64,000 bases of DNA from Thermoplasmata archaeon (GTDB lineage Archaea > Thermoplasmatota > Thermoplasmata > Halarchaeoplasmatales > Halarchaeoplasmataceae), in NCBI GenBank assembly GCA_046484045.1, contig JAWOBZ010000080.1:28630-92629 (forward strand). The letters run 5' to 3'. This document shows positions 15,943 to 59,518 of the stretch, piece after piece. How positions within the stretch are numbered: position 1 is the stretch's first letter; each line of letters starts with the position of its first letter. Below the pieces are notes generated by a model that saw only the letters and a program-made list of their open reading frames with translations, was not told where the DNA came from and ran no database searches. The position numbers were made by a program, and so were the translations under genes.

Positions 15943-16416
15943 ATGCGCAGATACATATCTCTCTCGGGAAATTACTGGAAGACGCTCAACGGTCTTTGGG
16001 CAGTACTCAAAGAGAGCGACTTCCGCCCGGAAGAGGTCGTACTGATAACAGAGAAAAAATCGATGAATAAAGCGAAGAGGATCCAGAGGGACATGAAGAT
16101 ACTGATGGACAGCTACGACCTGCCGGAGGAAGTTGGGATAAAAAAAGTGGGCAACTCGGATTACAACGGAACTTCGAAGATCGTGACTGGACTCATCAAG
16201 GATAACCTGGAAGGGGATAATAAAAACGCACTGGACCTCACCGGAGGCAGTAAATTGATGGTCGCCGCCGCTCTTTTCACTCCAGATACAGGCAAGATAG
16301 ACCATATATTCTTCCTGGATTTCGATGAAGATGATGGCATAGAACTTCCTTATCCCGATATACCCCACGGATCCGTAGAACTCAAGGATCTAGTGGAAGA
16401 AAGGAGGCGGGTATAG
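15943..16416 (+). CDS. CARF-like (Rossmann-fold ligand-sensor) domain protein, standalone
   Basis: The N-terminal strand/loop ISLSGNYWKTLNG and the DLTGGSKLM motif match the two conserved CARF signatures (hxSxxG... and [DN]xTGG[TS]KxM). An AGAGGT RBS lies 8 nt upstream. The gene abuts the next gene (stop at 16416, ATG at 16417). Confidence 0.5.
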   Translation: MRRYISLSGNYWKTLNGLWAVLKESDFRPEEVVLITEKKSMNKAKRIQRDMKILMDSYDLPEEVGIKKVGNSDYNGTSKIVTGLIKDNLEGDNKNALDLTGGSKLMVAAALFTPDTGKIDHIFFLDFDEDDGIELPYPDIPHGSVELKDLVEERRRV

Positions 16417-17490
16417 ATGGAGGAAGTCTTCACTAAAAGAGATCTCATGATGTTCCTGAACGAAGTGAAGAGACAGGGCATCGATCACTTCACCGTGGTA
16501 GAGCCTTACTTCAAAACCAAGATGCTGGACATCGAATTGAAGGGAGGGAGATACGAGGTGACGCTATCAGGTAAAAGCGATTTCGGACCCTATCCGTCCA
16601 AGGACAAGTACTGGGACGTAAGCGATGTGCCTGATTTCTACAGCTACAAGGACTGCTTGATCTCGTCCGGTCTGGTCAAATTCGATAACTGGTCCAAGTT
16701 CGAAGATTGGATAGGTTACTTCTACAAGAGCGAGATCGATCCGAGCTTCGCCAGCAAGTCTATATTCCTCTCCATCGATACGAACATGGCATACTATCGG
16801 CTTATTTCTAGAAGATTTCCCATCGAGAACAACGGATACAACATACAGGCATCGGACTTCGATTACCTGCTGAGCTCGATCGTGGAAGGGGAGATCGACC
16901 ACCACATCAAGGACAAGTACAGCAACATGGACATCAAGATGATGGGGATGTACACTAAGATAGGTGATATCCGCTACAATTTCAATAACCGTGGAAAGCT
17001 GATGACCAGGAAGGCAAAATTCGCCACCCAGGAGTTGAATTACCTCAGAGGGAAGCTCAACGCGGCTAGAGTGAAAGGGAACGTATCTAAAACAGATTCG
17101 GAGAAGAACGATATCTGGATAATAGAATCCCTGGAGCAGTTCGGATGGACGAAGAACATCAACGTGGGCTTCATCTCAGCCGACAGGAACATGGGCAACC
17201 ACGCCGAAAATGCCGAGATACCGTACTTCATCCTGGAGATACCGCACAACATACCCAGGAAGAACGTGGTGAACGAAGACGTCATCAAGAATTTACTGCA
17301 CGACCTAGCACTCATATTCGGCGCGGTAAAACTACCCGAGTTGGAAACCACGATGTTCGGCGTGTGGGGGGGTAAAACGGACTTCGATTACCGCAACGAG
17401 AGCGTCAAAGCGTGGGTGAATCCTAATTCATCCCTGGAAAAAGGTTTGAAAAAGGATGTGAAGATACTTAGATCTCTGAAAGGACCCTGA
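16417..17490 (+). CDS. PIN-domain nuclease with an uncharacterised ~100-aa N-terminal domain
   Basis: IFLSIDTNMAYY (the first PIN Asp motif) plus downstream acidic positions (IIESLEQFGW, FISADRN). An AGGAGG RBS lies 9 nt upstream. Confidence 0.55.
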   Translation: MEEVFTKRDLMMFLNEVKRQGIDHFTVVEPYFKTKMLDIELKGGRYEVTLSGKSDFGPYPSKDKYWDVSDVPDFYSYKDCLISSGLVKFDNWSKFEDWIGYFYKSEIDPSFASKSIFLSIDTNMAYYRLISRRFPIENNGYNIQASDFDYLLSSIVEGEIDHHIKDKYSNMDIKMMGMYTKIGDIRYNFNNRGKLMTRKAKFATQELNYLRGKLNAARVKGNVSKTDSEKNDIWIIESLEQFGWTKNINVGFISADRNMGNHAENAEIPYFILEIPHNIPRKNVVNEDVIKNLLHDLALIFGAVKLPELETTMFGVWGGKTDFDYRNESVKAWVNPNSSLEKGLKKDVKILRSLKGP

Positions 17491-17502: not shown

Positions 17503-19647
17503 CTAGGGTTTTTTTATTTCGTAACGCAATTTACTCTCTAGATAACCGAAGGGTGCCAGTATCTCTCCGCCGACTCTATACAGATATCTTTCGTAGTAAG
17601 AGGTATCGTAATATTCATCGTGATAGCCCACTATAGACACCTTGTTTTTGTAGTTCTTACTTTTGGCATCCGTCACCACGTATCGGATCACCTGCCCGGG
17701 ATGCACTCGGATACCGTGTTCTTTGTACTGGAGCAGTGCCGCCTTGGTCTCTGTCATGTGCTCGTACTCCTCCGCACCCTTGGACGTTATCTTGGTGAAG
17801 TGCAGTTCTCCCATGTCGGCTTTCCCAGAGCGTATCTCTCTTGCGTATCTTCTTACTACGTCTAGATATCCATGGATGCCGTCGAATAGTTCTTTTCTGC
17901 TCGTGCAGTCCGACATCTGGCGCAGTATCTCTTTCTGACAGTTCTTGAACAGCGTCGGTGTGTCCCTTCTCCTTGCGTGGATACCTTTGAACTCGAGTTT
18001 ACCGTCCAGCAGTCCGAAATATCGATTCGGCACACCTATCTTCGGATCTCCTTTACTGCCCAGGAACACCACCCATGAGTACTTGCCCTCCTTCTCCAGT
18101 ACTACCTTGGTTTTCTCCTCGACTATGGATAACAACTCTTCCACTCGTTCCTCACCGCCCTTCAACCAAAGAGAGTCCACGATGCCGTGAACAACTTCGT
18201 AGCCCATATCCTGGGCCGTATCGGCGGCTTCCAGCAGTATATCCCTGCCGTAGGCGGTAATACTCTCGTGAACCTCGATGTTGCTGAAACGTGCTTTCTT
18301 GTACCCTGTGTAACCGAAGCAGGTAACCAGCAGCCATTTGAGCACCTTGGCTCTGTCTTTGAAGACTTCGTTATCAGGCGTGGACTTGTAGAGCTGTCTT
18401 CTTTCAACAACCGGCCCTACGACCTTCGGAATAAGTCCTCTCCTTTTATTGCAGACCTTGTACCCCAGCTCAGGGACTACGTGATGATCACCGCAGGTGC
18501 ACCCCAGAGTCTCTGGCGAGAGGTTGTACTTGTCGATGATAGAGGGATACATGCTGGCGAAGTCCAGCTTGATCAGGTCTTCGTGAACGCCGATTATCGG
18601 AGAGTAGATGTGCCCGCCTCTGTCTGAGAGTATCAGCTGTCTCATTGTCTTGAAGCGCTCGGTGATGTTCTTCTTCCACGGTATCAGGTATCCGTCTTTC
18701 ATCGCCTGGGCGATCTCCATCGCATCGATGGCACTACCCGGACTTCGGCGGGAGAGCCTCTGCAGGGGGATCTTTGACAACCTGGCGATCTCTATGAGGC
18801 CGTCGATGCCTCCTTCGCGGTACATGAAAGAGCTTTGTTCGTCTATGTGTATGCGGCCCTTGAGTGTGTATGTAGGCGGTTTGTAGAGCACCCTGCCATA
18901 GGAAACGTAAGATGAACCCTGCCTGGGGGAGTGCATCGAACGCTCTCGTCCAAGGCATAAGGACACCTCGTGAAGTTCACTCCGATAAGCAAGATAAGGT
19001 ATCAAAAACGTGTCTCCGCCGGAGGTGATGACTATATCTGGATCTATGTTTTTGATACCGTCGTTCAGGTCTTTCAGTATACTCTCTTCGTCACCGCGTA
19101 TATCCATATCATCCAGTGCTGCTGATCGGAGTGGATCGTCCATCCTAGGTAAACCATCAGATTCCGTTTCTACATCCAATCTCACCGTGCGTAGAGGTGG
19201 TTTAGAGTAACGTATATTATCGCTATCCTCCAGCTCCCGCCATCCGTGGTTCTTCTCGACCAGTGAAAAAGTGCTGATGTCGTTCTCTATGAGATATCTC
19301 TGGCCCAGCGGTATGTCGACGTTGTAGAAAAGGTATTTCTGGTAGCCGTTGAAGAAATCCAAAGCATCCGCGTTCTTTCTGGGATCGAAAACTCTACCGG
19401 GTGAAACACGCAGAACATCCCTTTCTTTTCTATCGTGGATATCCGTTATCCTCTTCTCCGAACAGGTCTCGAAACCCATCTTCTCGTAGTGCATTTCGGC
19501 TTCACGGTGATCTCCGTCTTTAGCTCTCAAGAAAAAGACCGGGTCGTAATCGACCAAGACCTTGTGGCAGTCCTTCTTAGTCCGGATCCAGAGGACCATC
19601 TTCCCCTTTTTCAAGTCGGGGTAGATGTCCAATATCCATCCCTTCAT
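17503..19647 (-). CDS. polB: Family B DNA polymerase with substituted catalytic residues (PolB2-like, probably inactivated)
   Basis: The N-terminus MKGWILDIYPDLKKGKMVLWIRT is archaeal PolB-like. Exo I DVETE is intact. The Exo II region DPDIVITSGGDTFLIPYL has L where the catalytic Asp is expected. Motif A DFASMYPSII is intact. Motif B KWLLVTCFGYTGY has lost the conserved N and S. Motif C reads HGIVDS instead of YxDTDS. Confidence 0.8.
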   Translation of the reverse strand: MKGWILDIYPDLKKGKMVLWIRTKKDCHKVLVDYDPVFFLRAKDGDHREAEMHYEKMGFETCSEKRITDIHDRKERDVLRVSPGRVFDPRKNADALDFFNGYQKYLFYNVDIPLGQRYLIENDISTFSLVEKNHGWRELEDSDNIRYSKPPLRTVRLDVETESDGLPRMDDPLRSAALDDMDIRGDEESILKDLNDGIKNIDPDIVITSGGDTFLIPYLAYRSELHEVSLCLGRERSMHSPRQGSSYVSYGRVLYKPPTYTLKGRIHIDEQSSFMYREGGIDGLIEIARLSKIPLQRLSRRSPGSAIDAMEIAQAMKDGYLIPWKKNITERFKTMRQLILSDRGGHIYSPIIGVHEDLIKLDFASMYPSIIDKYNLSPETLGCTCGDHHVVPELGYKVCNKRRGLIPKVVGPVVERRQLYKSTPDNEVFKDRAKVLKWLLVTCFGYTGYKKARFSNIEVHESITAYGRDILLEAADTAQDMGYEVVHGIVDSLWLKGGEERVEELLSIVEEKTKVVLEKEGKYSWVVFLGSKGDPKIGVPNRYFGLLDGKLEFKGIHARRRDTPTLFKNCQKEILRQMSDCTSRKELFDGIHGYLDVVRRYAREIRSGKADMGELHFTKITSKGAEEYEHMTETKAALLQYKEHGIRVHPGQVIRYVVTDAKSKNYKNKVSIVGYHDEYYDTSYYERYLYRVGGEILAPFGYLESKLRYEIKKP

Positions 19648-19897
19648 CTTTTAGCCTCCTTTCCAACCTGTCCAGGACGAGTTCGTGCTCAAGTAGTATG
19701 GAGATGAAAACCGATTCCATGGGATCGCTGTTGGCCTGGTACTGAGCGGCGGAGGCGTGCCTCTTCGCTTTTGTCATGAGCTCGTCGAATCTCTCACGCT
19801 CTTCCTTCCTGAGTGCTCGCCTGAACTTGCTCCATTCCGCTATTATGCTGTCCAGCTCCTGGCGGAACGTGGGAACGCTCTTACCCACCGCTCTCAC
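19577..19897 (-). CDS. Hypothetical small helical protein, operonic between the RadB-like gene and polB
   Basis: The 106-aa ORF overlaps the radB-like stop by 17 nt and the polB start by 70 nt. The polB RBS (AGGAGG) lies inside it. Its product has amphipathic-helix character and there is no homology call. Confidence 0.35.
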   Translation of the reverse strand: MRAVGKSVPTFRQELDSIIAEWSKFRRALRKEERERFDELMTKAKRHASAAQYQANSDPMESVFISILLEHELVLDRLERRLKDEGMDIGHLPRLEKGEDGPLDPD

Positions 19898-20366
19898 CCC
19901 CGTGATCTAAGAACAGTTCCGGCTTCTTATCTGCGACCACGCAGTAGAGCGAGAATTCGTCCACCGTACGCTTCAGCTCTTTGACCCCTGCAGAGCACAG
20001 CCAGATACCCTCGTCTTCGTTCATGTCGTCGTCTTGGAAGCGAGATGAGAAATCTATCAGGCCCAGGAACGATATGTCACCGCTGGTCTCCACTATCTTC
20101 CTCACGTCCTTAACCATGTTCTCTAGCTGGTAAGCGGTGAAGCCTCTGCCTACTATGGTCCTTTTGAGCACGTTGTTCTGGTCGTAACCGTACTTTTTGC
20201 AGATCCTGACCATCCAGTACGGATCTATCCTGGCGCTGCCGTCGATGACCAGGGCTCTGCCTCCGTTCTCTCCTATGCAGCGTACCGCTAGAGCGGTGAC
20301 TATCTGATGCTTCGTGGTCCGGAAGGCGCGTATCTCCCCTCTGTGCAAAGGATACTCCGCACTCAT
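19881..20366 (-). CDS. RadB/RecA-superfamily-like small protein with a degenerate Walker A
   Basis: It aligns by eye to the archaeal RadB core (VIDGSARIDP ~ VDTEGGFSP; FLGLIDFSSRF ~ Walker B hhhhDS). The P-loop position reads AFRTTKHQI and has no GxxxxGK[ST]. There is a TATA-like ttatac ~30 nt upstream of the ATG, suggesting a leaderless start. Confidence 0.5.
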   Translation of the reverse strand: MSAEYPLHRGEIRAFRTTKHQIVTALAVRCIGENGGRALVIDGSARIDPYWMVRICKKYGYDQNNVLKRTIVGRGFTAYQLENMVKDVRKIVETSGDISFLGLIDFSSRFQDDDMNEDEGIWLCSAGVKELKRTVDEFSLYCVVADKKPELFLDHGGESGG

Positions 20367-20438
20367 GTAATATCATAATTTAGCACTAAAGTATAAGAAA
20401 AGTATAGGTGGGGGGTGAAGTGAAAGTGATCCACTTTT

Positions 20439-21005
20439 TCAAGGTGTTATAACTGTTCCGTTTATGCTTTTTGAGGATCCACTAGTAGGGCACGTTTCGT
20501 ATGGCCGCCTGAGTACTTGGTCGGGCCGTTTTCCATCGGGAATATCTCTATTTATTTCGAATCGTGGAAATCCCTCTAAATCCTGGCAATCTATCTTGAA
20601 CGTCCATCTTACGATCTTCATAGTTTTATCCGTACCAAGAGGTATCTCAAAGGAATCGATCAAACTTTTATTTTCGCCTGTCCGCAATTCAAAAACTATT
20701 TTGCCACCACCTTTTTGCCTCAAGGTGAAGCCGTATCCGTAGGTTCTTTTCATATCTGCTGCGAATCCATCAGTCAATCTTATCAATATTTTATTCCATC
20801 CATCTACACTATTGTTCAGAATGACGGTTACTTGCACCGTTTTCTCAATTGTATCTAGATCAATATCTCCAGTCGTTCCCACACCTATACTAGAGGCTCG
20901 TTTAATCTTAGCAGGGGTATCGCCACCGTGGACCGCCGTAGAAGTTGAAATAAGGATACAGAGTACGGCGGACAGGGTGAAGAAGTTCAGGATGATATGT
21001 TTCAC
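20439..21005 (-). CDS. Secreted/lipoprotein-like hypothetical protein
   Basis: N-terminal signal peptide MKHIILNFFTLSAVLCILISTSTAVHG. No recognisable catalytic motifs. Confidence 0.5.
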   Translation of the reverse strand: MKHIILNFFTLSAVLCILISTSTAVHGGDTPAKIKRASSIGVGTTGDIDLDTIEKTVQVTVILNNSVDGWNKILIRLTDGFAADMKRTYGYGFTLRQKGGGKIVFELRTGENKSLIDSFEIPLGTDKTMKIVRWTFKIDCQDLEGFPRFEINRDIPDGKRPDQVLRRPYETCPTSGSSKSINGTVITP

Positions 21006-30489: not shown

Positions 30490-30648
30490 TCGATGTTATC
30501 TACAGCACGAGTGACCGCAACTGGGACAAAGCCAACATCCTTCACGCGGTTGAAGTTCTTCTCCACATTTAGGGCATTCTATCTCCATGTTAAACGATGA
30601 TCATCAAGATATATAAGTCTAAAATAGGGTGGGTAGGGTGAAAGTAGT

Positions 30649-31977
30649 TTAAGAAACAATTACAACTGAAATGTCGTTGACGTTCGTGTTGCTTTCGAAC
30701 TCGATGGAATCACCCAACTCATCGAAGAAAATCTCAGTTTGATGTTCGTTAAGAGCTTTTTCTGCGTTCAGTGAGGAACGGTATATGGTCATACCATCGG
30801 CTATAGCTCCCGATTTTCCCACCCCATCCACACCGTCTGTATCTATACTTGCCACGACTATGTCCCTTCCTCTTATCTCTTGGGCAAAACTTAGAACGAA
30901 CTCCCTGTTCGGTCCGCCTTTCAACTCTGTATCCATCTTTTTTTTCATCTCCACCGTCATCTCACCACCGATTATCAGTGCCGCCGGTGTTTTTATCGGG
31001 TTGCCGCTTTTCTGTATCTCCACAGCTATACTTGCCAGAGGTTTCGCCACCTCGGTCGCTATACCCTGATTCTCCGATGTCAAAAGCCAGTTGGTAAGGT
31101 TTTTACTTTCTGCAACGGCTTTTACTTTCTGGAGCGCGATCATGTTGCTCCCCACGAGGAAGTTATTCGCTTCGACCCTCTTCGGTGTCTCTTCTATCTC
31201 ACCGCTCTTACCCATGGAAAGATGGACCCTGATAGATTCTGATACTTTATCCCACAAGTCATATCTCTTTATGACCGCCACCGCATCTCCATATGTAGAT
31301 GGATCTGCAACGGTGGGACCGGATGCCACATCGGTCAGCTCATCTCCTACCACGTCGGAGATGATGAGAGAAATTATTTGATTTCCGTCACTGCACAAAT
31401 CAGCTGACCTTCCACCTTTCACCTTGGATAGATGTTTTCTCACCGTGTTGATCTCACTGACGTTGGCACCGCTCTCCAACATCATCTCATTCAGTTCTAT
31501 AATATCTTTGAGTTCGATATCGTCGTGGGGTAACGTGTAGAGTGATGATCCGCCTCCGGATACCAAGAAGATGATAATGCTGTTCTGTGCGGAACTTATC
31601 TTATCGTATATCTCTTTGGAATGTCTAATATTTTCTTCTGAAGGGAGTGGGTGCGTACCGGATCTCACTTCCACGTTTAGATCCCCTGCATCCATGTGTT
31701 TTTTATTGGTGATGATAAGCCCGTCATCTATTTCGAGCTCTGAGAAGGGTTTCGCCATGGGCACGGAGGACTTTCCTATACCGAACAGCAGGATCTTATC
31801 GTAAGAATCTAACTCGAATGTTTCGTCTTTGACTTTTAAAACGTTATCTTCGATGGATATACTATCTTCAACTAATTTCTCTGGATCGGCTCCTTTTACA
31901 CCTGCCATGAGCATCTCGATCGCTATCTCTCGCATCTCCGGAATTTCCATATCACGAGTGGTAATTACAAGTAGCAA
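30649..31977 (-). CDS. Glycerate 2-kinase, MOFRL family (GckA-like)
   Basis: DUF4147/MOFRL-type motifs (IFLVSGGGSSL, IIGGEMTVEM). Length is 442 aa. Confidence 0.7.
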   Translation of the reverse strand: MLLVITTRDMEIPEMREIAIEMLMAGVKGADPEKLVEDSISIEDNVLKVKDETFELDSYDKILLFGIGKSSVPMAKPFSELEIDDGLIITNKKHMDAGDLNVEVRSGTHPLPSEENIRHSKEIYDKISSAQNSIIIFLVSGGGSSLYTLPHDDIELKDIIELNEMMLESGANVSEINTVRKHLSKVKGGRSADLCSDGNQIISLIISDVVGDELTDVASGPTVADPSTYGDAVAVIKRYDLWDKVSESIRVHLSMGKSGEIEETPKRVEANNFLVGSNMIALQKVKAVAESKNLTNWLLTSENQGIATEVAKPLASIAVEIQKSGNPIKTPAALIIGGEMTVEMKKKMDTELKGGPNREFVLSFAQEIRGRDIVVASIDTDGVDGVGKSGAIADGMTIYRSSLNAEKALNEHQTEIFFDELGDSIEFESNTNVNDISVVIVS

Positions 31978-40494: not shown

Positions 40495-40698
40495 TCAATC
40501 TCCTCTAAAATAGAGTCCTACCGGTTCTCTGGTGTACTTTTTGGTCTTCCTGGCCTTCACTATAGATGCGGCCACGGCGGTCTTATTCGGTAGACTATCT
40601 GCATTCGTGATGCCCTCGTTGAGCGCTATACGGTTCAGCTCTTCTCTTGTGTGGTTATCCACCAGCTCGTCTACTTCCTCCATATTACCATCTAACAA
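40495..40698 (-). CDS. Small hypothetical protein (SAP/Rho-N-like helix-extended motif)
   Basis: 67-aa ORF containing ELNRIALNEGITNADSLPNKTAVAASIVKARK. Support is weak. Confidence 0.3.
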   Translation of the reverse strand: MLDGNMEEVDELVDNHTREELNRIALNEGITNADSLPNKTAVAASIVKARKTKKYTREPVGLYFRGD

Positions 40699-40759
40699 TC
40701 ATACAACCAATATTTTACTTTTTGGCATGAAAACGAAAACTATATTAGTTTTACATAGA

Positions 40760-41725
40760 ATGATGAGCAAGATGAAGGACATTTGGACGGAGAAGTACAG
40801 ACCGCAGACATTGGACGAGGTTTTCGGGCAGGAACAGGTGGTCGAGAGGTTGAAAGCCTATGTTAAACAGGGTAATATACCTCACCTCCTATTCGCCGGA
40901 CCTGCCGGAACGGGTAAGACCACGTCTGCCATAGCACTTTCTAAGGAGATATTCAAGGACAAATGGAAGTCGAACTTCTTCGAGTTGAACGCCAGTGACG
41001 AAAGGGGTATCGACGTTATCAGGAACAAGATCAAGGAGTACGCCAGGACGAGTTCACTGGGTGCAAGGGGGTTCAAAGTGATCTTCATGGACGAGGCGGA
41101 TTCACTCACTTCAGAGGCTCAAGCGGCGCTCAGGAGGACCATGGAGAAGTTCTCCAGCAACTGCCGGTTCATACTGTCCTGCAACTATTCATCCAAGATC
41201 ATCGATCCCATACAATCCAGATGTGCCGTATTCAGGTTCAGTAGATTGACCAAGGAGAACGTAAGAAAATGGATCCAGCACATCTCGGAAGAAGAGGGGT
41301 TGACGGTGACCGAGGATGCTGTGGAAACTCTTATAAGGATAGCCGAGGGGGATCTCAGGAAGGCGACCAACCTCTTACAAATATCCGCTTCAACCACGTC
41401 CGAGATCACGGAAGAGAACGTTAGACTGAGTGCCAACGTGGCGAAACCCGGTGACATCGAGGAGCTGATAAAGATCGCTATAGAGGGAGAGTTCATGGAA
41501 GTAAGAAACAAACTCCAGGACCTCCTGATCGAGTACGGTCTCTCCGGCTCCGACATCGTCAAACAGATACACCGCACGATATACGACATCCCCATGGACA
41601 ACGAAAGGAGGATGATGTTGGTGGACAGGATAGGTGAAGCCGAGTTCAGGATAGTCCAGGGCTCGAACGACATGATCCAACTCGAGGCTCTGCTGGCCAA
41701 CTTCGCCTTCGAGGTTGAAGATTGA
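40760..41725 (+). CDS. rfcS: Replication factor C small subunit
   Basis: WTEKYRP, the Walker A motif GPAGTGKTT, DEAD-like FMDEADSL, and SRC (SCNYSSKIIDPIQSRC). The start is placed at the internal MMSKMKD rather than the ORF-track start at 40532. Confidence 0.85.
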   Translation: MMSKMKDIWTEKYRPQTLDEVFGQEQVVERLKAYVKQGNIPHLLFAGPAGTGKTTSAIALSKEIFKDKWKSNFFELNASDERGIDVIRNKIKEYARTSSLGARGFKVIFMDEADSLTSEAQAALRRTMEKFSSNCRFILSCNYSSKIIDPIQSRCAVFRFSRLTKENVRKWIQHISEEEGLTVTEDAVETLIRIAEGDLRKATNLLQISASTTSEITEENVRLSANVAKPGDIEELIKIAIEGEFMEVRNKLQDLLIEYGLSGSDIVKQIHRTIYDIPMDNERRMMLVDRIGEAEFRIVQGSNDMIQLEALLANFAFEVED

Positions 41726-47561: not shown

Positions 47562-48932
47562 TCATACTAAGATATCTTCTAACTGGTGAAGTATGATATC
47601 ATCTCTTCCTTCGGATCTATCAATAAGTTTCTTTTCATATCCTGATCTTGAGAATAGACCAAATGTCTCTTCACGACTATCATTTCTCCATCTGACCTGA
47701 GCGGCTTTCCTTTCTAGCTTTTTCAACACTCCGATGTCGACCTTATCTTTACTCCATTTACATTCTCCCAAAAAGATCTGGTTGTCTTTTTCATCGAGCG
47801 CAACTATGTCTATCTCGTTTTCTTCGTGCCACCACCGACCAATTTTATTATATTCATATTTGCGTTTTACGGCTTTCAGACATACATCCTCAAATATCCT
47901 ACCCATATAATGACTGTAATCTTCTTTTACAGTATCTATCACTCCATCTGGGTTTACCTCGATCTGGCTCATATTAGGATAAACAAAGGTGATCCAGAAA
48001 CGGAAATAATTATCCTTTAATTTGTATAGGAAATTTCTCTGTTTTGGCTTTTCAGTTACTGGATATTCCTTATAGATTATATCCAATCTGTCCAAGGAGT
48101 TTAGATACTTATTGATATTTGTGATGGATATTTTACTTTTAGAAGATATCTCTGAAAGTTTGGTAGCACCGTCTATTATGGATTTGATGATGTTAAAATA
48201 AGTATTGGGCTTTCTTAATTCCTCTCTAAGCAATATCTCCGCTTCCTCGTAGAGTATATTCAATTTATTCAGGAAGGTGCCCTGGATATTATCGTAGAAA
48301 CCTTTCTTCGGGTCGAATTCTTTTAGATAGAAAGGTACGGCTCCAATCGCACCGTAAGTTTTTATCAAATCTTCCTGTGAATAATCTGGTAGGAATTCAC
48401 TTAGTTTCATTATGGGTATCTCGTCTACCTTGAGCTGCCCAGTTCGACGTCCATACAGTGGACTGCTGTAATCGAGCACCTCCTTTTCCATCATACCTAT
48501 GGAAGAACCGGTTAATACGAGGAAGATGTTTTCTTCACTCAGCACCTCATCCCAGATGTACTGCATCTCGGACAATATCTCTTTGTTCTCCTCGATCCAA
48601 TAGGGAAACTCGTCGATGATGAAGACGAATTTTTCTTGCGTGGATATCTTGTCGACCATGTTTATGAACAGCTCAGAGAGGGAGTTGGTTTCTGGAAGGT
48701 AAATATCGTGTTCTTTCGCAAGTTCATTCCTTAATCTCTCGACTTCAAGAGAAAAATCCTGTTTCCTAGAGAGAAAGTAAAAATTTGGTTTATCCTTTGA
48801 AAACTCCTTGGCTAGGGTGGTCTTACCGATCCTCCTCCTTCCATAGATGATAAAAAAATCAGAGCCTTCGCTTTCGTACCTCTCTTCGAGTCCGTCGAGC
48901 TCGTACTCCCGATCTATGAATTGTAGTATCAT
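47562..48932 (-). CDS. Archaeal AAA+ ATPase (Arch_ATPase + DUF234)
   Basis: FIDREYELDGL...YGRRRIGKTTL (Walker A) and Walker B IIDEFPY are present. Length is 456 aa. Confidence 0.75.
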   Translation of the reverse strand: MILQFIDREYELDGLEERYESEGSDFFIIYGRRRIGKTTLAKEFSKDKPNFYFLSRKQDFSLEVERLRNELAKEHDIYLPETNSLSELFINMVDKISTQEKFVFIIDEFPYWIEENKEILSEMQYIWDEVLSEENIFLVLTGSSIGMMEKEVLDYSSPLYGRRTGQLKVDEIPIMKLSEFLPDYSQEDLIKTYGAIGAVPFYLKEFDPKKGFYDNIQGTFLNKLNILYEEAEILLREELRKPNTYFNIIKSIIDGATKLSEISSKSKISITNINKYLNSLDRLDIIYKEYPVTEKPKQRNFLYKLKDNYFRFWITFVYPNMSQIEVNPDGVIDTVKEDYSHYMGRIFEDVCLKAVKRKYEYNKIGRWWHEENEIDIVALDEKDNQIFLGECKWSKDKVDIGVLKKLERKAAQVRWRNDSREETFGLFSRSGYEKKLIDRSEGRDDIILHQLEDILV

Positions 48933-49180: not shown

Positions 49181-50062
49181 ATGCTCGACTACTTGATGTC
49201 CAAGATAGTTTGGATAATCGCCGCAGTGGTGCTCACCGCCTCAGTCATCGGAGTCTACAACTGGCAGAGGCATTCCATGGAAGAGGTGGAGCTCGAAGAG
49301 AGGGCGAAGGGTATCTCGGAGATGGTGAACCGGATCTGCACTACGGACGGAGAGATCAAGCTGTTAGCGTCCAGCAACGAGAGCAGGGATCCAGATATCT
49401 ACTTGGAACCGTCGATAAACGGTCGGGTATATCAGCTGCAGTTCACACCCTCCGGTTTCTACTTAAAACAGGGTGACAAGATCATCTGGAGGGACTTCGT
49501 GGAGAACGTCCACATGATGAACCCTGCGTTGATAGGCGAAAACGATTACTCCCTGGTGAGCCAAGTCGACAGCATCGACCACGACCTGTCGATCTCGTCG
49601 GGTGAAAACTTCTACATCATGTCCAAGGGGTACAACGGGGTCTACGAAGTCTTCATCTACTCGGAAGATTCGGAAGGGGTCGTGGCTGAGACGAAAACGG
49701 TGGGCAGCGTCATAGCGGATTTCTTCCAAGTTAGGCCGTCCAAAGGTAATCTTAGCTACAACAAAACTGCCAACGACACCTTCAAGGGCGATATTACATT
49801 TCAAACGGACTGCCTTTTCCTCAACAACAATACGGAACTGCCGTGTCCCATACCGAAGGTACATCTGTGGAACGTGAGCTCTGAAAATATATCTGATATC
49901 AATATCACCCAGATGGACGAAGAGCACAGTAGATTACAAGTCCATAAGAACGAAAAGGTCCATCTGAAAAGACAGTTGTTATACATCGATGGAAATTTTA
50001 CAGCACATAGATTCATCTACACGGATCAAGCTTCTGTGATCTCTCCGGCGACCAGGTGGTAG
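49181..50062 (+). CDS. Hypothetical N-terminally membrane-anchored protein
   Basis: The N-terminal hydrophobic helix KIVWIIAAVVLTASVIGVY is followed by a ~270-aa extracytoplasmic region with N-glycosylation sequons. Its 3' end overlaps the giant gene by 37 nt. Confidence 0.45.
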   Translation: MLDYLMSKIVWIIAAVVLTASVIGVYNWQRHSMEEVELEERAKGISEMVNRICTTDGEIKLLASSNESRDPDIYLEPSINGRVYQLQFTPSGFYLKQGDKIIWRDFVENVHMMNPALIGENDYSLVSQVDSIDHDLSISSGENFYIMSKGYNGVYEVFIYSEDSEGVVAETKTVGSVIADFFQVRPSKGNLSYNKTANDTFKGDITFQTDCLFLNNNTELPCPIPKVHLWNVSSENISDINITQMDEEHSRLQVHKNEKVHLKRQLLYIDGNFTAHRFIYTDQASVISPATRW

Positions 50063-53000
50063 TCCGGACCCTTGACTCCGAATTCCACCTTGGACCTACC
50101 CATGTCTTTGCCTATCAAGGACGCTATCGCCGGGACGTTGGCTGAGAAGAAACCGGTGTATTTACCCTTGCCTACTTCCACTCCAAGATACGTGTCGTCC
50201 AGTATCTCCATGGGAAATTCATTCGTTGAACAGGAGGGTTTTTTATCGACTATACTCATGATCAAGTTCTTGATAGCGGTAGCTATCCAGGTGACGAAAG
50301 ATGCGATGGATTCACCACCTGTCAAAGCGAAAGTGAGTGTCACTTGGACTTCGTTCACGGTGGCTTGGAAGAAGAGCACCAGTTCCTGCACCACTTCCTT
50401 TATGAACTCGATGACCTCTTCGATGAACTTCATAACCATGGTTTTGACGAAGTTGATGATGTAGTCCAAACTGAATTTTGTTTTGCCCATCTTATCAGCG
50501 GTGTCTCTGAACGCACTGTTCACCAATCCCACTAGAATATCCCCGAAGCTCTCGTTGACATCTAAGTAAACTATCTGAAAACCAAGGTCCACATCGCTCA
50601 CAACAACGGGACCGATGGGGAACCTCGCTTCGTTTATACCTGTGTATTCTCCCAGGGTCACTTCGGTTTCGTTTTTCGGTGTTTTTCTCTTTGGGATGGT
50701 CAGGTTGACGTAGGTGCCGTCCCCCTCCTTTCCATGCAGACCCTGGCACTGGAACCATGCGGGGTATATGCTCGGTGACTCGTGGAACGGGTCCGCCAAC
50801 GGGTCCACCTGCCAATCGATATCAGTCTTTCCCACCCGTATCTTGCCGAAAGCGATCACGTCGCTCTCGAGAACGTTGAGGTTCAATCTGTAAGAAGTTC
50901 CGAACAGCTCACCGCCCAGGCTTATGTTGACGTACCTCGTCACGTTGTTTTCATACTTTGGAATCGAGGTCTCGTATCCGTCCGCGGTGACGTTCACCAT
51001 ACTGGACAGCCCGGTTATGGACAGGATCTTGTCCAAACACTTCAGTTTACCCTTGTCTTTCAGCTTGTCCAGTAAACTTTTGGCCTTGGGTCTTAAAAGG
51101 TCATTGATCGTGCTGTTGATAACGTCACCCAGCTTCTGGACCAACTTGGTGGCGTACTCTTTCAGTTTGTCCACCAGTTTATCGAATAACTCCATGATCT
51201 TTTCGATACCGTCTATGAGGTACGAAAGTGGCTTCTTGATGTACTTCCAGACTTTGTTCAAAAAGTTCATCGCATCAGAAAAAACGTCGTCGGAGAGCTT
51301 GTACTTGACTCCCGCCAACTTCCAGCCTGAATAAACCGTCAGCTCCAAAGAGAAAGAGATGTTCTCGGTGTGGTTCATCCAGACGTACCTGGGTTCACCG
51401 TCCTCTATGAGCGTAGGATCGGCCCTGCTGACGTTGTAATCCACCTCTATCGGGTCTATCTGTATCTTCCAATCCGTGCTGAACGGTCTGCTGGATATCT
51501 TGTTTACTTTCGTGTAGTGGACCCCTTTGGGCTTGCTTATATCGATCCTGTTGTCCAGTGAGATATAATCCGGCGTACAGTCGAATCTGAGCTTGAGCTC
51601 CCGCTCCCCTTCACCGTGTGAGAAACCAGCGGTTGTATCCACGGGTAAACGGTACTCCAGGTTGCTCATCTGACCTCCCATTATCATCTGGGTAGTCGTC
51701 GTTTTTAAAAACGATGACGCAAGCTCGAAAAGGGAATCGGTCATACTGCCTCCCCCTATTATCGACCATACCTTTCTCTGAAACAGGTTGCCCTGGATGT
51801 GCTCACCGTTCTTACTGGTCTTGAACTCGACGTGTTCTGCCTTCTTCAGTGAATTACCGTATAGGTCTTCCACGTCCGTGATGTTGAACCAGTAGCGCTG
51901 GTCGGACTCGAATTCACCATGGTGTAGGGTGATCATGGTCCCGTCTGCGTTCATATCGTACTCCCAAGACCCATCGTATGGATGGCACGTGAACTCCAGA
52001 CTGCTCTCTTTTATGGGCTCACTGAAAACGATGTGAAGTGGTATATCGGAGAGATACCGCTCGTTACCGTCCTCTGGACAAACGGCGATAACCTCCGGCC
52101 TGGTTGATTCCTTGATCTTGAACACGAATGGATTCGATATCCCCTCTGATATCCTCAGGTCGCTGCCGTTCTCGTCCTCTCCCTTTATGAACACCTTGTA
52201 TTTTACGCCGATTTCGAACGTTTCATGCGATATGACGACTTCGTCATCACCCACCCACGCGAAAGAGATGTTGGTTGTGTGGGGCTGTACGGACAGGTTG
52301 AAAGTGGTTTTGTTGATGGGTTTGCTGAACCTCACCCTTATGTTCTCGTTCTTGGAGATGTTCTCCGAACCGTTTACTGGGTAAGTGTAGGTGATCTCTG
52401 GAAGGTCTATCGACTTGGTCCTGTAATCCGCTGAGAAGAGAGTAGTACCGGTCCCTTCAGCTGTGACCGCGGCGCCGTCGTATCTGCTCTGCAGAGCGGA
52501 CAGATCGAACTCCAGGTCGATGTCGGCGCCGGGCGGGAAGGGTTCATGGTCCAGAACGAGTCGTTTACCGTTCTTTTCGAAACTATACTGCCAGGTGAGG
52601 TTGGAATCGATGAGATCTTGGATGCCGGTTGAAAATTCCACCCTCTCGTCGAAGGTCATGATTATCGAGCTCTCGACAGTTATCTCGCTGCCCGAGGACG
52701 GGTAGATACCGGTGACCTGTGGATACATCATGGTGGTCCAGGTGATGTCCTGGGGCTGCATCAAAGATGAATTCGTCCCGTTGTCCACGTCCTTAACACC
52801 ATCTATGGTCAGCTCGTATTCAGTGTAACGGAAGTAGAATTCAGATGGTGTCAATACCGCCCGGGTATCGTTATCATGCCAATTGACCGTGAAATCGACG
52901 TTTGGTGAGATAGAGTATGCCAAAGATTTCGTGTCCACTTTCTCGCTGAAGGTGACGGTGATCTCCTGGTCGGTGTTCCAGCTGTTGTTGCTGCTGGGTA

Positions 53001-55956
53001 AGATGTCCAGCACCCTCGGTCTGTTATCGACGAGCACCTGCACCGTGGTGTTATCGTGTCCCCCGCAGTCGTCCCAAACATCCAGAGTTACGTTGTAGGT
53101 ATCGGGTGTCATGAAAGTGTGGTTCACGTTCTTTCCCGTCTCATTTGTCCCGTCACCGAAGGTCCAGATACTTTGGATAACGCTGCCGTCGGGGTCGGTG
53201 CTGTCGCTATGAAAAGCCATCATCTCTGTTTCGGATGCAGGTGATGGTGAAACGCTCCCTATCTCTGCTTTCGGTGGTAGATTTACGAATATCTCTACAC
53301 TGTCCGAGTGAGTGAATCCGTCTTCGTCCACGACCTCGAATGTGATGACGTGCGTGCCGGGTGAGAGAAAACCGGCCGACATGTTGAAGTCCTCTTTGTT
53401 GGATAGATGACCGTCGATGTTCGATATCCACGATACCATGGAGGCGTTCACCCCGGTGAGATCGCCTTGGAATGATATCACGTGCTGTCCCCTGGTGGCT
53501 GGGTCCGGTGTGATATCCTCGATGTAGACCGTGCTTCGACTCCTGGTTTCAGTTCTTTTATGAGCTTGATAGTTCTTCACGGACGTGTTATACTGGTAGG
53601 AATCCAGTGCTTGGATGATCAGACCGTCGGAATCCGAGTGCTGGCTGTCTTCGTTCACCTCGCTGATCTCCCGGTCCCTTATATCATCGAATGCGGCCTC
53701 GACCTCTGGTTTTAGCTCCTTTTGGAGATCTTCTATTTTGGGACCTGAGAGTGTGCCTCCCTTCTGCAAGATATCGGCTATCTGCTGTTTATCTAACTCG
53801 CCGTCTCTTTTCCAGACGTAGTCGCACTCCGTGTTCGCCTTTCCTACCTTCACTTCAGAACTAGTTACGTCGTACTCCAGGTATGGATTAGTGTGACAAG
53901 ACAATTCTTCGGCGGTCCTTTGAGCCGTTGAATCAATCACATCCTTCTTTTGTGACAGAGAACCGTATTTTTTCTTTAAAAATTTCTTTAGGTCGTTGAT
54001 GCGTGGATCTCCCTCTTCATCGTGGAGAACGTCCAAGACGGCATCGACGATCTTCCCCGGATTATCCTGGTAGTAATCCATGGTTTCATCGATGGAGCTG
54101 GAGACCGCATCGTTGAGTTCTTTGAACAGCGATCTTCTATCGTAGGGATCGAGTTCCAACTTGGTGTATTTAGTCAATATCTCCTCCAATCCCGGGTCCT
54201 CCAGTACCGATTCGATGAACTTGGAGATCACCTCTTTTACCGCACCCCTGATGTTCTCCGCTTTCTTCTTGCTCTCCTTTTTGTAGTGGTCGTCGTAGAA
54301 CTCCTGCCAGTGCTTGTCGTTGTCCTCCAAGAGGTCTCTAGGGGTGAACATCAACTTTCCTTCGTCGATGGTGACTTTGACCTCTTTCTCTATGAAATCG
54401 TATCCGTAGAGCACTTCTGCGCCTCCACAGCGGCCGTAAACCGGTTCTCCGTCATCCTCACCCTTGACAACGGACTCGTTGCACGTGTGTCCGTGTTCCC
54501 TGTGAACCGTGCCGTGACCGCAGTCGTACGTGTACCATCTGTGCTCCGGGGATTTCAGCCTGATCCTGATCTTTAGGGTGTATACCTCTTTGAAATTCGG
54601 CGGTAGATTCGGGTATCCAGATATCGTTTTTCCGTTCATCTCGTCGTACACGTAATAATTCGATTTGAGCGTGTTGGTGTTCATAAGACCGGCGGAGATG
54701 AAATTCTTGGCCACCCAGTTCTTGACGGTTTCCACCTGTTCCGGATTAATTTCATCCTCCTCCCCAGATAAGAAATGAGAGAATATGTCCTCCGACCCCT
54801 CTTTCATGTCTTCGTAGATGTCGACGAGCGCCTGATATGCCTTGAACCCAATGTTTGCCACCTCCATATAGTGGAAGTAATCTAGGTACTTGAAAACGAA
54901 CTGATCCGACAGTGCGTTTATAGCTTGGGAGATCACCGCCGTTAAGTTGATGTCAGTCGAGTCCTCGCGCTCTACGATCTCTCCATCGTATCCGTAACCG
55001 TAGTACAGAGATACGATATCACCAGGATCGATACGGCCTCTCTGGATGTATTCGTCCACCAGTTCCCGTATAGTGCATGCGGCTTTGGTGGTTCGATTGG
55101 ATATCTCTCGGACGGATCCATCGTCGAAGGTCCTGTACTGGTAAGCTGTCTCTAAAAGGAAGGCCATGTTAACAGCCAGCTCGACGTCTTTCTTCGTGAT
55201 TATCTCGCTTGTGGCTTTGCAGGACGAGTTATCGATGTTCTCGTACTTTCTCATCCCGTAGCCCATCAACGTCCTGTACTGCGCTAGAGTGGTGATGATG
55301 TAGTCCGTGATCCTGGCCACGTGGCTTTGTTCTCCGGAGAGCTGTGAGTTAAAGGATGAGCACTTCTTTTTCAGGAACGGATACGGCACGTCCACGTCGA
55401 TGGTGAAATCTTTTTCTTTGTCCATGGAGAGGCCTTTGGGATTCTTAACTCTTAGAGAGATCGACCCCTCAACCTTGTACGCGTAGGTCTCGTTGTTCTT
55501 GTCTAACTCACCCGGTTGGTCGTTGGATACCCTGTCGTATCCTCCCCTGTCCTGGACCGTTTTGTTTATGGAGTCCGTCTCTTCGAATTTGATGTCCATG
55601 GAGAGGCTGTGGTTCAATATCTTTACAATGGCTCCCGGGACTTTTTTTTCCTCGTACTCATCCATAAAGTCTTCCGTCCGATTCTGGAATACTGTTGAAA
55701 CTGACATGTCCTTCCTGTTGGCTTTGTATGCACTCCTGACGGCCAATAGTTTGATCCTGGACTTCAGTGCATCGAGTTCGTTGTCCGCTCTCTCCTCGAG
55801 CTCGGATATCTCGTCGGCCCTGAGCTCGTTCTCGTAGCTGATCATCTGTATCCTAGATAGGTAAGCTACCGCTAGAACCGACAGTAATACAATTAGCACT
55901 CCTAAAAGGGCGAAGGATACGGTACCAACGTCTTTTCGGTCACTTCTAAAGATCAT
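50026..55956 (-). CDS. Giant (1976 aa) cell-surface protein with PKD and Ig-like domains and an N-terminal TM/pilin-like anchor
   Basis: The N-terminus is RKDVGTVSFALLGVLIVLLSVLAVAYL. The PKD signature is WTFGDGTNETGKNVNHTF...DDCGG. Repeated beta-sandwich-like segments are rich in N-x-S/T sequons. Confidence 0.7.
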   Translation of the reverse strand: MIFRSDRKDVGTVSFALLGVLIVLLSVLAVAYLSRIQMISYENELRADEISELEERADNELDALKSRIKLLAVRSAYKANRKDMSVSTVFQNRTEDFMDEYEEKKVPGAIVKILNHSLSMDIKFEETDSINKTVQDRGGYDRVSNDQPGELDKNNETYAYKVEGSISLRVKNPKGLSMDKEKDFTIDVDVPYPFLKKKCSSFNSQLSGEQSHVARITDYIITTLAQYRTLMGYGMRKYENIDNSSCKATSEIITKKDVELAVNMAFLLETAYQYRTFDDGSVREISNRTTKAACTIRELVDEYIQRGRIDPGDIVSLYYGYGYDGEIVEREDSTDINLTAVISQAINALSDQFVFKYLDYFHYMEVANIGFKAYQALVDIYEDMKEGSEDIFSHFLSGEEDEINPEQVETVKNWVAKNFISAGLMNTNTLKSNYYVYDEMNGKTISGYPNLPPNFKEVYTLKIRIRLKSPEHRWYTYDCGHGTVHREHGHTCNESVVKGEDDGEPVYGRCGGAEVLYGYDFIEKEVKVTIDEGKLMFTPRDLLEDNDKHWQEFYDDHYKKESKKKAENIRGAVKEVISKFIESVLEDPGLEEILTKYTKLELDPYDRRSLFKELNDAVSSSIDETMDYYQDNPGKIVDAVLDVLHDEEGDPRINDLKKFLKKKYGSLSQKKDVIDSTAQRTAEELSCHTNPYLEYDVTSSEVKVGKANTECDYVWKRDGELDKQQIADILQKGGTLSGPKIEDLQKELKPEVEAAFDDIRDREISEVNEDSQHSDSDGLIIQALDSYQYNTSVKNYQAHKRTETRSRSTVYIEDITPDPATRGQHVISFQGDLTGVNASMVSWISNIDGHLSNKEDFNMSAGFLSPGTHVITFEVVDEDGFTHSDSVEIFVNLPPKAEIGSVSPSPASETEMMAFHSDSTDPDGSVIQSIWTFGDGTNETGKNVNHTFMTPDTYNVTLDVWDDCGGHDNTTVQVLVDNRPRVLDILPSSNNSWNTDQEITVTFSEKVDTKSLAYSISPNVDFTVNWHDNDTRAVLTPSEFYFRYTEYELTIDGVKDVDNGTNSSLMQPQDITWTTMMYPQVTGIYPSSGSEITVESSIIMTFDERVEFSTGIQDLIDSNLTWQYSFEKNGKRLVLDHEPFPPGADIDLEFDLSALQSRYDGAAVTAEGTGTTLFSADYRTKSIDLPEITYTYPVNGSENISKNENIRVRFSKPINKTTFNLSVQPHTTNISFAWVGDDEVVISHETFEIGVKYKVFIKGEDENGSDLRISEGISNPFVFKIKESTRPEVIAVCPEDGNERYLSDIPLHIVFSEPIKESSLEFTCHPYDGSWEYDMNADGTMITLHHGEFESDQRYWFNITDVEDLYGNSLKKAEHVEFKTSKNGEHIQGNLFQRKVWSIIGGGSMTDSLFELASSFLKTTTTQMIMGGQMSNLEYRLPVDTTAGFSHGEGERELKLRFDCTPDYISLDNRIDISKPKGVHYTKVNKISSRPFSTDWKIQIDPIEVDYNVSRADPTLIEDGEPRYVWMNHTENISFSLELTVYSGWKLAGVKYKLSDDVFSDAMNFLNKVWKYIKKPLSYLIDGIEKIMELFDKLVDKLKEYATKLVQKLGDVINSTINDLLRPKAKSLLDKLKDKGKLKCLDKILSITGLSSMVNVTADGYETSIPKYENNVTRYVNISLGGELFGTSYRLNLNVLESDVIAFGKIRVGKTDIDWQVDPLADPFHESPSIYPAWFQCQGLHGKEGDGTYVNLTIPKRKTPKNETEVTLGEYTGINEARFPIGPVVVSDVDLGFQIVYLDVNESFGDILVGLVNSAFRDTADKMGKTKFSLDYIINFVKTMVMKFIEEVIEFIKEVVQELVLFFQATVNEVQVTLTFALTGGESIASFVTWIATAIKNLIMSIVDKKPSCSTNEFPMEILDDTYLGVEVGKGKYTGFFSANVPAIASLIGKDMGRSKVEFGVKGPDYHLVAGEITEA

Positions 55957-57906: not shown

Positions 57907-58053
57907 CTGTTATCACCGTAGTTTTTGTATTATAGAGCTGATTTTTAAGGCTTTTCGAGGGGGGCGGGTGAATGTGGGGGTTGGGTGAGATTGGGGGTAA
58001 GAGGTATAGTTGATGGGGGTAAAATTCTTGATAAAGTGGGTTATCTATAATCA

Positions 58054-59007: not shown

Positions 59008-59046
59008 GAGTTGACAAAAGATATTCTCGTATAAGTTGATTTGGTC

Positions 59047-59418: not shown

Positions 59419-59518
59419 ATGTGATCTCTCCTTTGGGTTGGGAAGATGTGGTTGGTTTATAAAATTATGTTGGGGGGTACTGGGGGAAATTTTATATGTT
59501 ACGTATATCATCTAATAC

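Follow-up and report, generated by a model that had tools for sequence, protein, structure and literature searches.

An iRadA-PPB2-PolB2 operon in a Thermoplasmatota contig and the conserved promoter element upstream of it

A conserved predicted operon of an 'inactivated' family-B DNA polymerase (PolB2), a small helical protein (arCOG07300) and an inactivated RadA paralogue was described in archaea by Makarova, Krupovic and Koonin in 2014 (PMC4104785). In 2025, Timinskas, Timinskas and Venclovas renamed the two partners PPB2 and iRadA and modelled a PolB2:iRadA:PPB2 heteropentamer with a 1:1:3 stoichiometry (PMC11791011). Here, we examine an operon of this kind, together with the promoter element upstream of it, in a 64-kb stretch of archaeal DNA from contig JAWOBZ010000080.1, the whole of which is referred to as the window.

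In the high-confidence models, PPB2 has an N-terminal 'MGRT' arm in which positions 3 and 9 are basic, the D(K/R) motif of PolB2 touches this arm, and the PolB2 segment that precedes D(K/R) mimics the Rad51 oligomerization motif and binds iRadA; a C-terminal clamp-binding motif is optional in iRadA or PolB2 (PMC11791011). The PolB2 enzymes of Sulfolobus islandicus and S. solfataricus, Dpo2, are robust polymerases that have no exonuclease activity and efficiently extend mismatched termini and termini at lesions (PMC8764526). Their motif C is IID, likewise without the Tyr and the first Asp (PMC8764526; for S. islandicus also PMC11791011). Dpo2 is damage-inducible and is the sole polymerase required for damage-induced mutagenesis (PMC7390963, PMC6061795). 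The hexamer ANTTTC is the Sulfolobus DNA-damage-response element (DDRE), which is bound by Orc1-2 (PMC6061795).

Gene identities, motif states, synteny and conservation of the promoter element were all established at the window locus itself, which is a typical example of the operon already described and not a new kind of system. We consider it likely that this is a chromosomal iRadA-PPB2-PolB2 operon whose products form a damage-induced mutasome with an active, proofreading-deficient extender polymerase. For the window lineage, we infer complex formation, polymerase activity, induction by damage and the identity of the regulator by analogy. The only point that may be new at this locus is the upstream promoter element, conserved over several archaeal phyla. 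It is a more useful result than the operon, which adds only a halophilic Thermoplasmatota example.

The operon and its products

The three overlapping open reading frames (ORFs) lie on the minus strand between positions 17503 and 20366 of the window, and were first listed as 161, 106 and 714 codons (19881-20366, 19577-19897 and 17503-19647, respectively). The first-pass annotation of this DNA had read them as genes for a P-loop-less RadB-like protein, a small helical protein and a substituted family-B polymerase, and as a whole this observation is borne out. It had also proposed translational coupling through overlaps of 17 and 70 nt. The coupling stands, but the lengths do not. The overlap of iRadA and PPB2 is 8 nt because the start of PPB2 has been moved from 19897 to the GTG at 19888, and the overlap of PPB2 and polB2 is 71 nt when the stop codon is counted. 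PPB2 homologues begin with MGKSVPTYR or MGRTVPTYR, and the GTG at 19888 gives MGKSVPTFR in the same register with a Shine-Dalgarno-like sequence just upstream; PPB2 therefore most likely starts there. A TATA-like sequence, TTATAC, is found at -30 to -25 relative to the ATG of iRadA (20366), and there is no Shine-Dalgarno sequence at this start. Together with the conserved spacing between promoter element and ATG in the close clade, this supports a leaderless iRadA mRNA, in agreement with the first-pass annotation. The operon would be expressed as a single leaderless transcript, with the frames translationally coupled via the two overlaps, each of which has an internal Shine-Dalgarno sequence.

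PolB2 matches the Pfam families DNA_pol_B (PF00136, 1.3e-29) and DNA_pol_B_exo1 (PF03104, 1.5e-6), and aligns to archaeal PolB structures at E~1e-41 (HMMER). The best NCBIfam model, NF004416, scores 471.8 bits, below its cutoff of 516. A homologue search with the window protein found 3467 sequences. One of these (P0001) is 100 % identical to the window PolB2 but comes from a shorter gene call, and an exact look-up of the protein in the assembly index gave no record. Some homologues of about 895 aa (P0078, P0098 and P0109) contain an intein (PF14890).

The polymerase motifs were compared in the HMMER alignment to the P. abyssi and P. calidifontis PolB structures, and residue conservation was counted over an alignment of 114 homologues (MAFFT, fast mode) with identities down to about 40 %. 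The substitutions that had been read by eye in Exo II, motif B and motif C are real and are not due to misalignment. Exo II is GGDTFLIPYL as against YNGDNF(D)FPYL, with Asn replaced by Gly (G210) and the catalytic Asp by Leu (L215), and in Exo III the Tyr is replaced by Arg and the Asp is retained. The proofreading active site is lost through these replacements, as had been proposed. Exo I had been described as kept, and D158-V-E160 is indeed present. However, the Asp is found in only 22 and the Glu in only 29 of the 114 homologues, and this DxE is therefore a relic. The picture differs in the polymerase domain. Motif A (LDFASMYPSII) is intact, as previously read, with D362, Y367 and P368 invariant in 114/114. 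Motif B is KWLLVTCFGY as against KILANSYYGY, with Val and Thr in place of Asn and Ser; K437 is retained, and both this Lys and LVT.FGYTGY are invariant. In motif C, HGIVDS as against YIDTDG, Ile replaces the first Asp and the second (D491) is retained. H487, G488, D491 and W494 are invariant, and I489 and V490 are found in 110 and 107 of the 114, respectively.

Two further conserved segments correspond to contact regions of the published models. The 'D(K/R)' motif, D342-R343, is in the loop before motif A and is invariant, as are G344 and G345 after it. It is preceded by an FxxA-like segment, F332-K-T-M335, within the conserved block W324-K-K-N-x-x-E-x-F332-K-x-(A/M)335. All 114 sequences share W324, K325, N327, E330, K333 and L338; 112 of them have F332 and 75 have Ala at position 335, which is Met in the window PolB2. 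On the basis of motifs and synteny, the polymerase belongs to the PolB2 group, to which it had also been assigned by the first-pass annotation.

The first protein of the operon scores 27.9 bits against Pfam Rad51 (cutoff 22). A profile built from the window protein and three homologues and run against PDB sequences matched Rad51/RadA at 1e-9. An AF2 model based on an 11-sequence alignment (predicted local distance difference test, pLDDT, 87.9; predicted template modelling score, pTM, 0.84) retrieved RAD51, DMC1 and RadA cores in a Foldseek search (TM 0.73-0.79, root-mean-square deviation ~2.5 A). In the Walker A region, the protein has RAFRTTKH as against GEFRTGKS in Rad51, with both Gly and the Ser/Thr lost and the Lys retained. 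The catalytic Glu is replaced by Ser (IDTEG in Rad51, IDGSA here). The Walker B Asp is retained (LGLIDF), and G102, L103, I104 and D105 are invariant in the clade. The ATPase-site replacements are also conserved within the clade. The PDB profile alignment thus upholds the earlier reading that the ATPase site was lost and the Walker B strand FLGLIDFSS kept. The name RadB-like, which the first-pass annotation had used, describes only the length of the protein. RadB was rejected as an identity, as the P-loop is destroyed and the best matches are Rad51, DMC1 and RadA. No RadB-named chain is among the 53 PDB sequence matches listed for the profile at E<=1, and the NCBIfam matches are RAD51, DMC1 and RadA only. 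The protein is iRadA.

The window iRadA has no N-terminal helical domain and includes about 150 of the approximately 215 residues of the RadA/Rad51 core. It stops right after the strand that matches 'VVTNQ' of Rad51, and both the L2 loop and some 70 residues at the C-terminal end of the core are missing. In the clade of the window, iRadA is 150-180 aa long, as against about 240 aa elsewhere. The long iRadAs of Methanomassiliicoccales end in NQTTLDEF, which resembles a PCNA box, and the short forms, including that of the window, do not have it. The locus is a somewhat minimal form of the system, in which iRadA has about 150 core residues and no clamp-binding motif, and it helps to show which parts of iRadA are indispensable for the complex.

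That both enzymes are impaired, as the first-pass annotation had considered likely, holds for the ATPase of iRadA. If it also held for the polymerase, the products would be a pseudo-enzyme complex, a structural or regulatory module that, for example, senses or remodels stalled forks. Rogozin reportedly held the view of PolB2 as inactivated in 2008. In Exo II and III and in motifs B and C, canonical residues have indeed given way to others, the ATPase site of iRadA is destroyed, and inactivation was proposed on the same grounds in PMC4104785. However, all 114 homologues keep the Asp residues that bind metal in motifs A and C, as well as the Lys of motif B that contacts the dNTP, which fits an enzyme and not a scaffold. 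In addition, a Sulfolobus PolB2 with the same replacement of the first Asp is fully active (PMC8764526), its motif C being IID, and the earlier prediction of inactivation is explicitly called erroneous in PMC11791011. We consider a pseudo-enzyme complex unlikely, and the 'inactivated polymerase' reading, together with the structural or regulatory role proposed in the first-pass annotation, is probably wrong. The invariant catalytic motifs indicate that PolB2 is under purifying selection as an enzyme. Strict conservation of D362, D491 and K437 alongside drifting exonuclease carboxylates is what would be expected of an active enzyme without proofreading.

PPB2 gave only noise with the local Pfam and NCBIfam libraries, and was identified via synteny, the N-terminal motif and precomputed PF26485 labels on close homologues. 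The N-terminal MG(K/R)(S/T)VPT(F/Y)R is common to about 60 loci, and K3 and R9 correspond to the basic positions 3 and 9 of the modelled arm. A low-confidence AF2 model from the single sequence (pLDDT 64) shows three helices (8-25, 28-50 and 56-81), a free N-terminal arm and a disordered tail at 82-103. In the clade of the window, PPB2 is about 20 aa longer than elsewhere, and the extra, acidic tail, of about 22 aa in the window, is encoded in the 71-74-nt overlap with polB2. The tail may be functional, or it may simply result from the strong conservation of the PolB2 N-terminus that is encoded in the other frame.

Synteny was assessed for 84 non-redundant loci, made up of 80 species-level genome loci, homologue contigs that were inspected directly and the window. 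Enough upstream flank was available for 69. PPB2 is directly upstream of polB2 in 60 of these. The full trio has a collinear order in 54, and these range from Thermoplasmata to Bathyarchaeia and Nitrososphaerales. The order Rad51-like, DUF8156, PolB is also kept on contigs of PolB2 homologues with 87, 60 and 41 % identity. The synteny check suggested by the first-pass annotation thus bears out a conserved operon, and the pairing cannot be called unusual, as it had been, for the operon was described in 2014 (PMC4104785) and modelled in 2025 (PMC11791011). The nearest polymerases are from Thermoplasmatota metagenome-assembled genomes (MAGs), several of them from hypersaline samples, including Candidatus Saliniplasma and Halarchaeoplasma, and the host is an uncultured, probably halophilic Thermoplasmatota archaeon.

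Variants of the operon were also found. Three Nitrososphaerales loci (L077, L078 and L084) have two copies of PPB2, and the iRadAs of L078 and L084 are extended at the N-terminus by a segment with a Cys-rich motif that resembles a zinc ribbon. In L009 iRadA is inverted, and in L007 it is 2 kb upstream; in both cases it has its own copy of the promoter element.

Divergent PolBs are frequent on archaeal mobile genetic elements (PMC4104785), and the window also carries mobile or defence genes, including AbiEi/AbiEii and a CARF/PIN pair. The polymerase might accordingly belong to a casposon, a pPolB plasmid or virus, or another integrated element and not serve the host. However, the neighbours of the operon are housekeeping genes. 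In the 87 % relative (L001), as in the window, the operon is bordered by cysS at one end and by pgk and tyrS at the opposite end, and these conserved flanks disfavour a mobile origin. Moreover, the GC content and skew of the locus are unremarkable, no Cas1, integrase or terminal-protein gene adjoins the operon, and the gene trio is inherited across phyla. A mobile-element origin is thus extremely improbable. Between cysS and the operon promoter, the window has an additional 188-aa ORF (Table 1). As the gap between cysS and iRadA is only 97 nt in L001, this ORF is an indel between close relatives.

The promoter element

The element has the form CACTTTC(A/G)NN(C)ACCYCYCCC, i.e. a hexamer followed by a C/T-rich tract. 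In the window, the ACTTTC hexamer is 31 nt before TTATAC, and across loci the spacing from hexamer to TATA box is 24-31 nt; the distance of the element from the ATG in related loci is 59-86 nt. The block CACTTTCACTTC.CCC is invariant in the window, L001 and L002 (PolB2 87 and 60 % identical, respectively) though the flanking DNA has diverged. ACTTTC is present in 32 of 54 300-nt regions upstream of iRadA, compared with 6.7 % of controls (binomial P~6e-24).

A 26-nt position weight matrix (PWM) was built from 36 loci other than the window. Its top match in the entire 64 kb is the iRadA promoter, with 24.1 bits. Among 12 stand-alone or separated polB2 genes, all outside the training set, nine are preceded by a match of at least 14.7 bits located 59-76 nt before the start, and the remaining three have a recognisable hexamer. 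Only 0.34 % of null regions reached 14 bits or more. The element is also found before separately transcribed PPB2 and iRadA genes and, near other PolB2 operons, before genes for an XPB helicase, tandem-HARP proteins and a GyrI-like protein. It thus occurs upstream of PolB2-system transcription units in four archaeal groups, Thermoplasmatota, Halobacteriota, Bathyarchaeia and Nitrososphaerales. From this pattern of conservation, we regard it as a real cis-regulatory site.

ACTTTC fits the ANTTTC of the Sulfolobus DDRE on the coding strand, upstream of the TATA box, and by analogy the element may be a damage-response site bound by an Orc1/Cdc6 paralogue. In the literature searched, the hexamer is discussed for Sulfolobales only, and a promoter analysis is absent from the 2025 PolB2 paper (PMC11791011). 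Tentatively, the element could be a pan-archaeal DNA-damage-response element that, in Thermoplasmatota, Methanomassiliicoccales, Methanoperedens, Bathyarchaeia and Nitrososphaerales, precedes essentially every PolB2-system transcription unit, also when the three genes are separated or polB2 is by itself. In that case, the circuit of Orc1-2 and the DDRE, so far known from Sulfolobales only, would date back to the archaeal ancestor, and the damage regulons of uncultured lineages could be predicted straight from their genomes, which would provide a simple sequence handle for unculturable organisms. With a damage-response role of the element, an SOS-like circuit of the Orc1 type would also no longer be confined to one crenarchaeal order but would extend over most of the archaea.

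The likeness to an Orc1-paralogue binding site (PMC6061795), and the enrichment of orc1/cdc6 in PolB2 neighbourhoods (PMC4104785, PMC11791011), would also suit a complex that serves replication initiation or its regulation, e.g. origin-independent, recombination-dependent initiation with Orc1/Cdc6, in place of lesion bypass. However, Sulfolobus Orc1-2 is a regulator of damage-response transcription and not an initiator (PMC6061795), neither an orc gene nor origin-like repeats were seen next to the operon, and the other genes that bear the element are repair genes, such as XPB and HARP. We consider a role in initiation highly improbable.

The reading that we favour is that the products assemble into a PolB2 'mutasome' with PolB2 as catalytic subunit, active and proofreading-deficient, which would extend mismatched or lesion-opposed primer ends. 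The ATPase-dead iRadA would dock on PolB2 via the FxxA-like FKTM just before the invariant DR motif, and a PPB2 trimer would put one N-terminal arm (MGKSVPTFR) into the cleft between PolB2 and iRadA. Transcription would be switched on after DNA damage through the CACTTTC...C-rich element, which is located some 30 nt upstream of the TATA box, and, by analogy with Sulfolobus, an Orc1/Cdc6-type regulator would bind this element.

Several points weigh against this reading. Motif B is without the Asn and Ser of replicative PolBs and motif C without the Tyr and first Asp, and activity is extrapolated from the distant Sulfolobus enzymes. The shortened iRadA might bind PolB2 differently. Its C-terminus, ...KKPELFLDHGGESGG, has no Qxx[LIMV]xx[FYW] pattern and thus no PCNA-binding motif, and no such motif was found when the PolB2 C-terminus was searched. 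The hexamer, at -61 to -56, is just beyond the -23 to -55 range of Sulfolobus. Finally, there is no Orc1/Cdc6 gene among 30 further ORFs of the window, which include most of those over 230 aa.

The second- and third-best matches of the matrix in the window (Table 1) are both in promoter-like settings, in which a TATA box follows downstream after about 24 nt and an ATG after roughly another 30 nt. One of 20 single-strand shuffles gave scores above 17 bits, and each match is only suggestive. The second-best match precedes a 30-aa zinc-ribbon ORF that may be a small member of the same putative regulon. The third-best is upstream of a gene for a 214-aa protein of the RNA_ligase family (PF09414), and both are within 57262-57979 on the minus strand. 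The element is conserved there in near-identical copies only (two MAG copies, L091 and L092), one MAG copy lacks it, and homologues of the ligase-like protein are mostly in virus-like contigs. For these reasons, the ligase-like gene is weakly supported as a conserved regulon member.

Feature coordinates and other genes in the window

The features of the operon and the additional genes are listed in Table 1. Two of the latter converge on polB2 and resemble a split CARF-PIN effector, and the pair is also present in L001. No CRISPR array or cas gene was noticed near the pair. The ligase-like gene and the AbiEi/AbiEii toxin-antitoxin pair recur together in the MAG Thermoplasmata HAP27 (L091/L092; region 57262-61092 of the window). 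The ligase proteins of HAP27 are 92 % identical to that of the window, whereas its PolB2 (L017) shares only 50 % identity with the window PolB2, which points to an island that moves horizontally or to a binning artefact.

Of replication genes outside the operon, only a homologue of the replication factor C small subunit was seen in the window. Because its AAA domain begins at about residue 90-120 of 397 aa, the GTG start that is listed may be too far upstream. Neither a second PolB nor PolD is among the 30 further ORFs; from phyletic patterns, PolB3 and PolD are expected in the genome (PMC4104785).

Table 1. Positions of the operon features and of other genes and matrix matches in the window
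Feature	Position	Strand	Basis or remarks
Upstream promoter element GATCACTTTCACTTCACCCCCCACCT, DDRE-like	20406..20431	-	ACTTTC at 20422-20427, -61 to -56 from the ATG; best PWM score in the window
TATA-like box TTATAC	20391..20396	-	-30 to -25 from the iRadA ATG; implies leaderless mRNA
iRadA, 161-aa RadA/Rad51 ATPase-core homologue, inactivated ATPase, truncated 'mini' form	19881..20366	-	Pfam, PDB profile search, AF2, Foldseek
Degenerate Walker A, R13-AFRTTKHQ-I22	20301..20330	-	Aligned to GEFRTGKSQL of yeast Rad51
Lost catalytic Glu position, I41-DGS-A45	20232..20246	-	PDB profile alignment
Retained Walker B strand FLGLIDFSS, D105	20043..20069	-	PDB profile alignment and clade alignment
Shine-Dalgarno-like GGGGGTGA	19894..19901	-	Inside the end of the iRadA gene, 5 nt 5' of the PPB2 GTG; sequence reading
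PPB2 (arCOG07300 / DUF8156), 103-aa helical protein, corrected start GTG 19888	19577..19888	-	Homologue N-termini, PF26485 labels, AF2
Shine-Dalgarno AGGAGG	19655..19660	-	Inside the PPB2 gene, 7 nt 5' of the polB2 ATG; sequence reading
PolB2, 714-aa family-B DNA polymerase, decayed exonuclease site, IVD motif C	17503..19647	-	Pfam, NCBIfam, PDB alignments
Exo II region ITSGGDTFLIPYL	18991..19029	-	N to G210, catalytic D to L215; PDB and 114-homologue alignments
WKKNITERFKTMRQLILSDRGG, FxxA-like segment and D342-R343	18613..18678	-	Predicted contacts with iRadA and the PPB2 arm; roles from PMC11791011 models
Motif A KLDFASMYPSII	18535..18570	-	Metal ligand D362; 114-sequence alignment
Motif B LKWLLVTCFGYTGY	18301..18342	-	K437 retained; Val/Thr for Asn/Ser; invariant in 114
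Motif C HGIVDSLW	18166..18189	-	Metal ligand D491 retained; PDB and 114-homologue alignments
188-aa ORF	20439..21005	-	Hydrophobic signal-like N-terminus; no family match
CARF-PIN pair, two adjacent genes	15943..17490	+	157-aa CARF protein (PADLOC CARF_m1, 3.5e-22), then 357-aa protein, the PIN half of a CARF_PIN fusion (1.6e-19)
Second-best matrix match AACTACTTTCACCCTACCCACCCTAT	30624..30649	-	18.3 bits; followed by CTTATATAT
30-aa zinc-ribbon ORF MEIECPKCGEELQPREGCWLCPSCGHSCCR	30496..30588	-	Unannotated; between two convergent genes, downstream of AACTACTTTCACCCTACCCACCCTAT
Replication factor C small-subunit homologue	40532..41725	+	Rep_fac_C and AAA
Archaeal ATPase	47562..48932	-	PF01637 and DUF234; matches candidate defence family PDC-S27 (PADLOC, 6.6e-52)
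1976-aa ORF, presumably a surface protein	50026..55956	-	PKD and Big_5 Ig-like domains
Third-best matrix match CCCCACATTCACCCGCCCCCCTCGAA	57954..57979	-	17.2 bits; followed by CCTTAAAAAT
AbiEi/AbiEii toxin-antitoxin pair	59519..61092		

Comparison with known systems

The closest characterized counterpart is Dpo2 of Sulfolobus/Saccharolobus with its partners. The same three protein families are involved, and in both cases PolB2 has lost its exonuclease site, retains the D(K/R) motif and has a replacement of the first Asp of motif C (IID there, IVD in the window). The MG(R/K)(T/S) arm of PPB2 and an ANTTTC-type hexamer in the promoter are also shared. However, the window lineage is euryarchaeal (Thermoplasmatota), its gene order is iRadA-PPB2-PolB2 on a transcript that would be leaderless, and the window PolB2 is longer (714 aa), with a recognisable exonuclease fold and a relic DxE, while iRadA is shortened to 161 aa. 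All of the sequence features of the mutasome model of PMC11791011 are present in the window, namely the PPB2 arm, the D(K/R) motif with the oligomerization-like segment, and an ATPase-dead iRadA without an N-terminal domain. The window differs from the model in that neither iRadA nor PolB2 has a PCNA motif, the RecA core of iRadA is missing its C-terminal third, an acidic tail is added to PPB2, and the Ala of FxxA is Met in PolB2.

The proposed complex would also resemble two systems outside the archaea. The E. coli Pol V mutasome (UmuD'2C-RecA-ATP) is likewise built on a damage-inducible translesion polymerase with a RecA-family partner held via a filament-type contact, and a small accessory oligomer inserts an N-terminal arm. 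However, its catalytic subunit is of the Y family, the RecA ATPase is active, the accessory proteins are unrelated to PPB2 and control is by LexA. Eukaryotic Pol zeta (Rev3-Rev7 with Pol31/Pol32) is, like the proposed complex, a multisubunit B-family extender that acts after lesion bypass and has an inactivated proofreading domain, but differs in having unrelated accessory subunits and no partner of the RecA type.

The promoter element can be compared with the DDRE of Sulfolobales. In both, the core hexamer is ACTTTC, AGTTTC or ATTTTC, read on the coding strand and located upstream of the TATA box. Conserved C residues follow the hexamer at +7 and +9, in agreement with the Sulfolobus consensus of 20 bp, AATAGTTTCRGWDTACTCWS, and both elements are located before polB2 and other repair genes. 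The element described here differs in being found in Thermoplasmatota, Halobacteriota, Bathyarchaeia and Nitrososphaerales, in the CACCYCYCCC tract that follows the hexamer, and in its slightly greater distance from the ATG.

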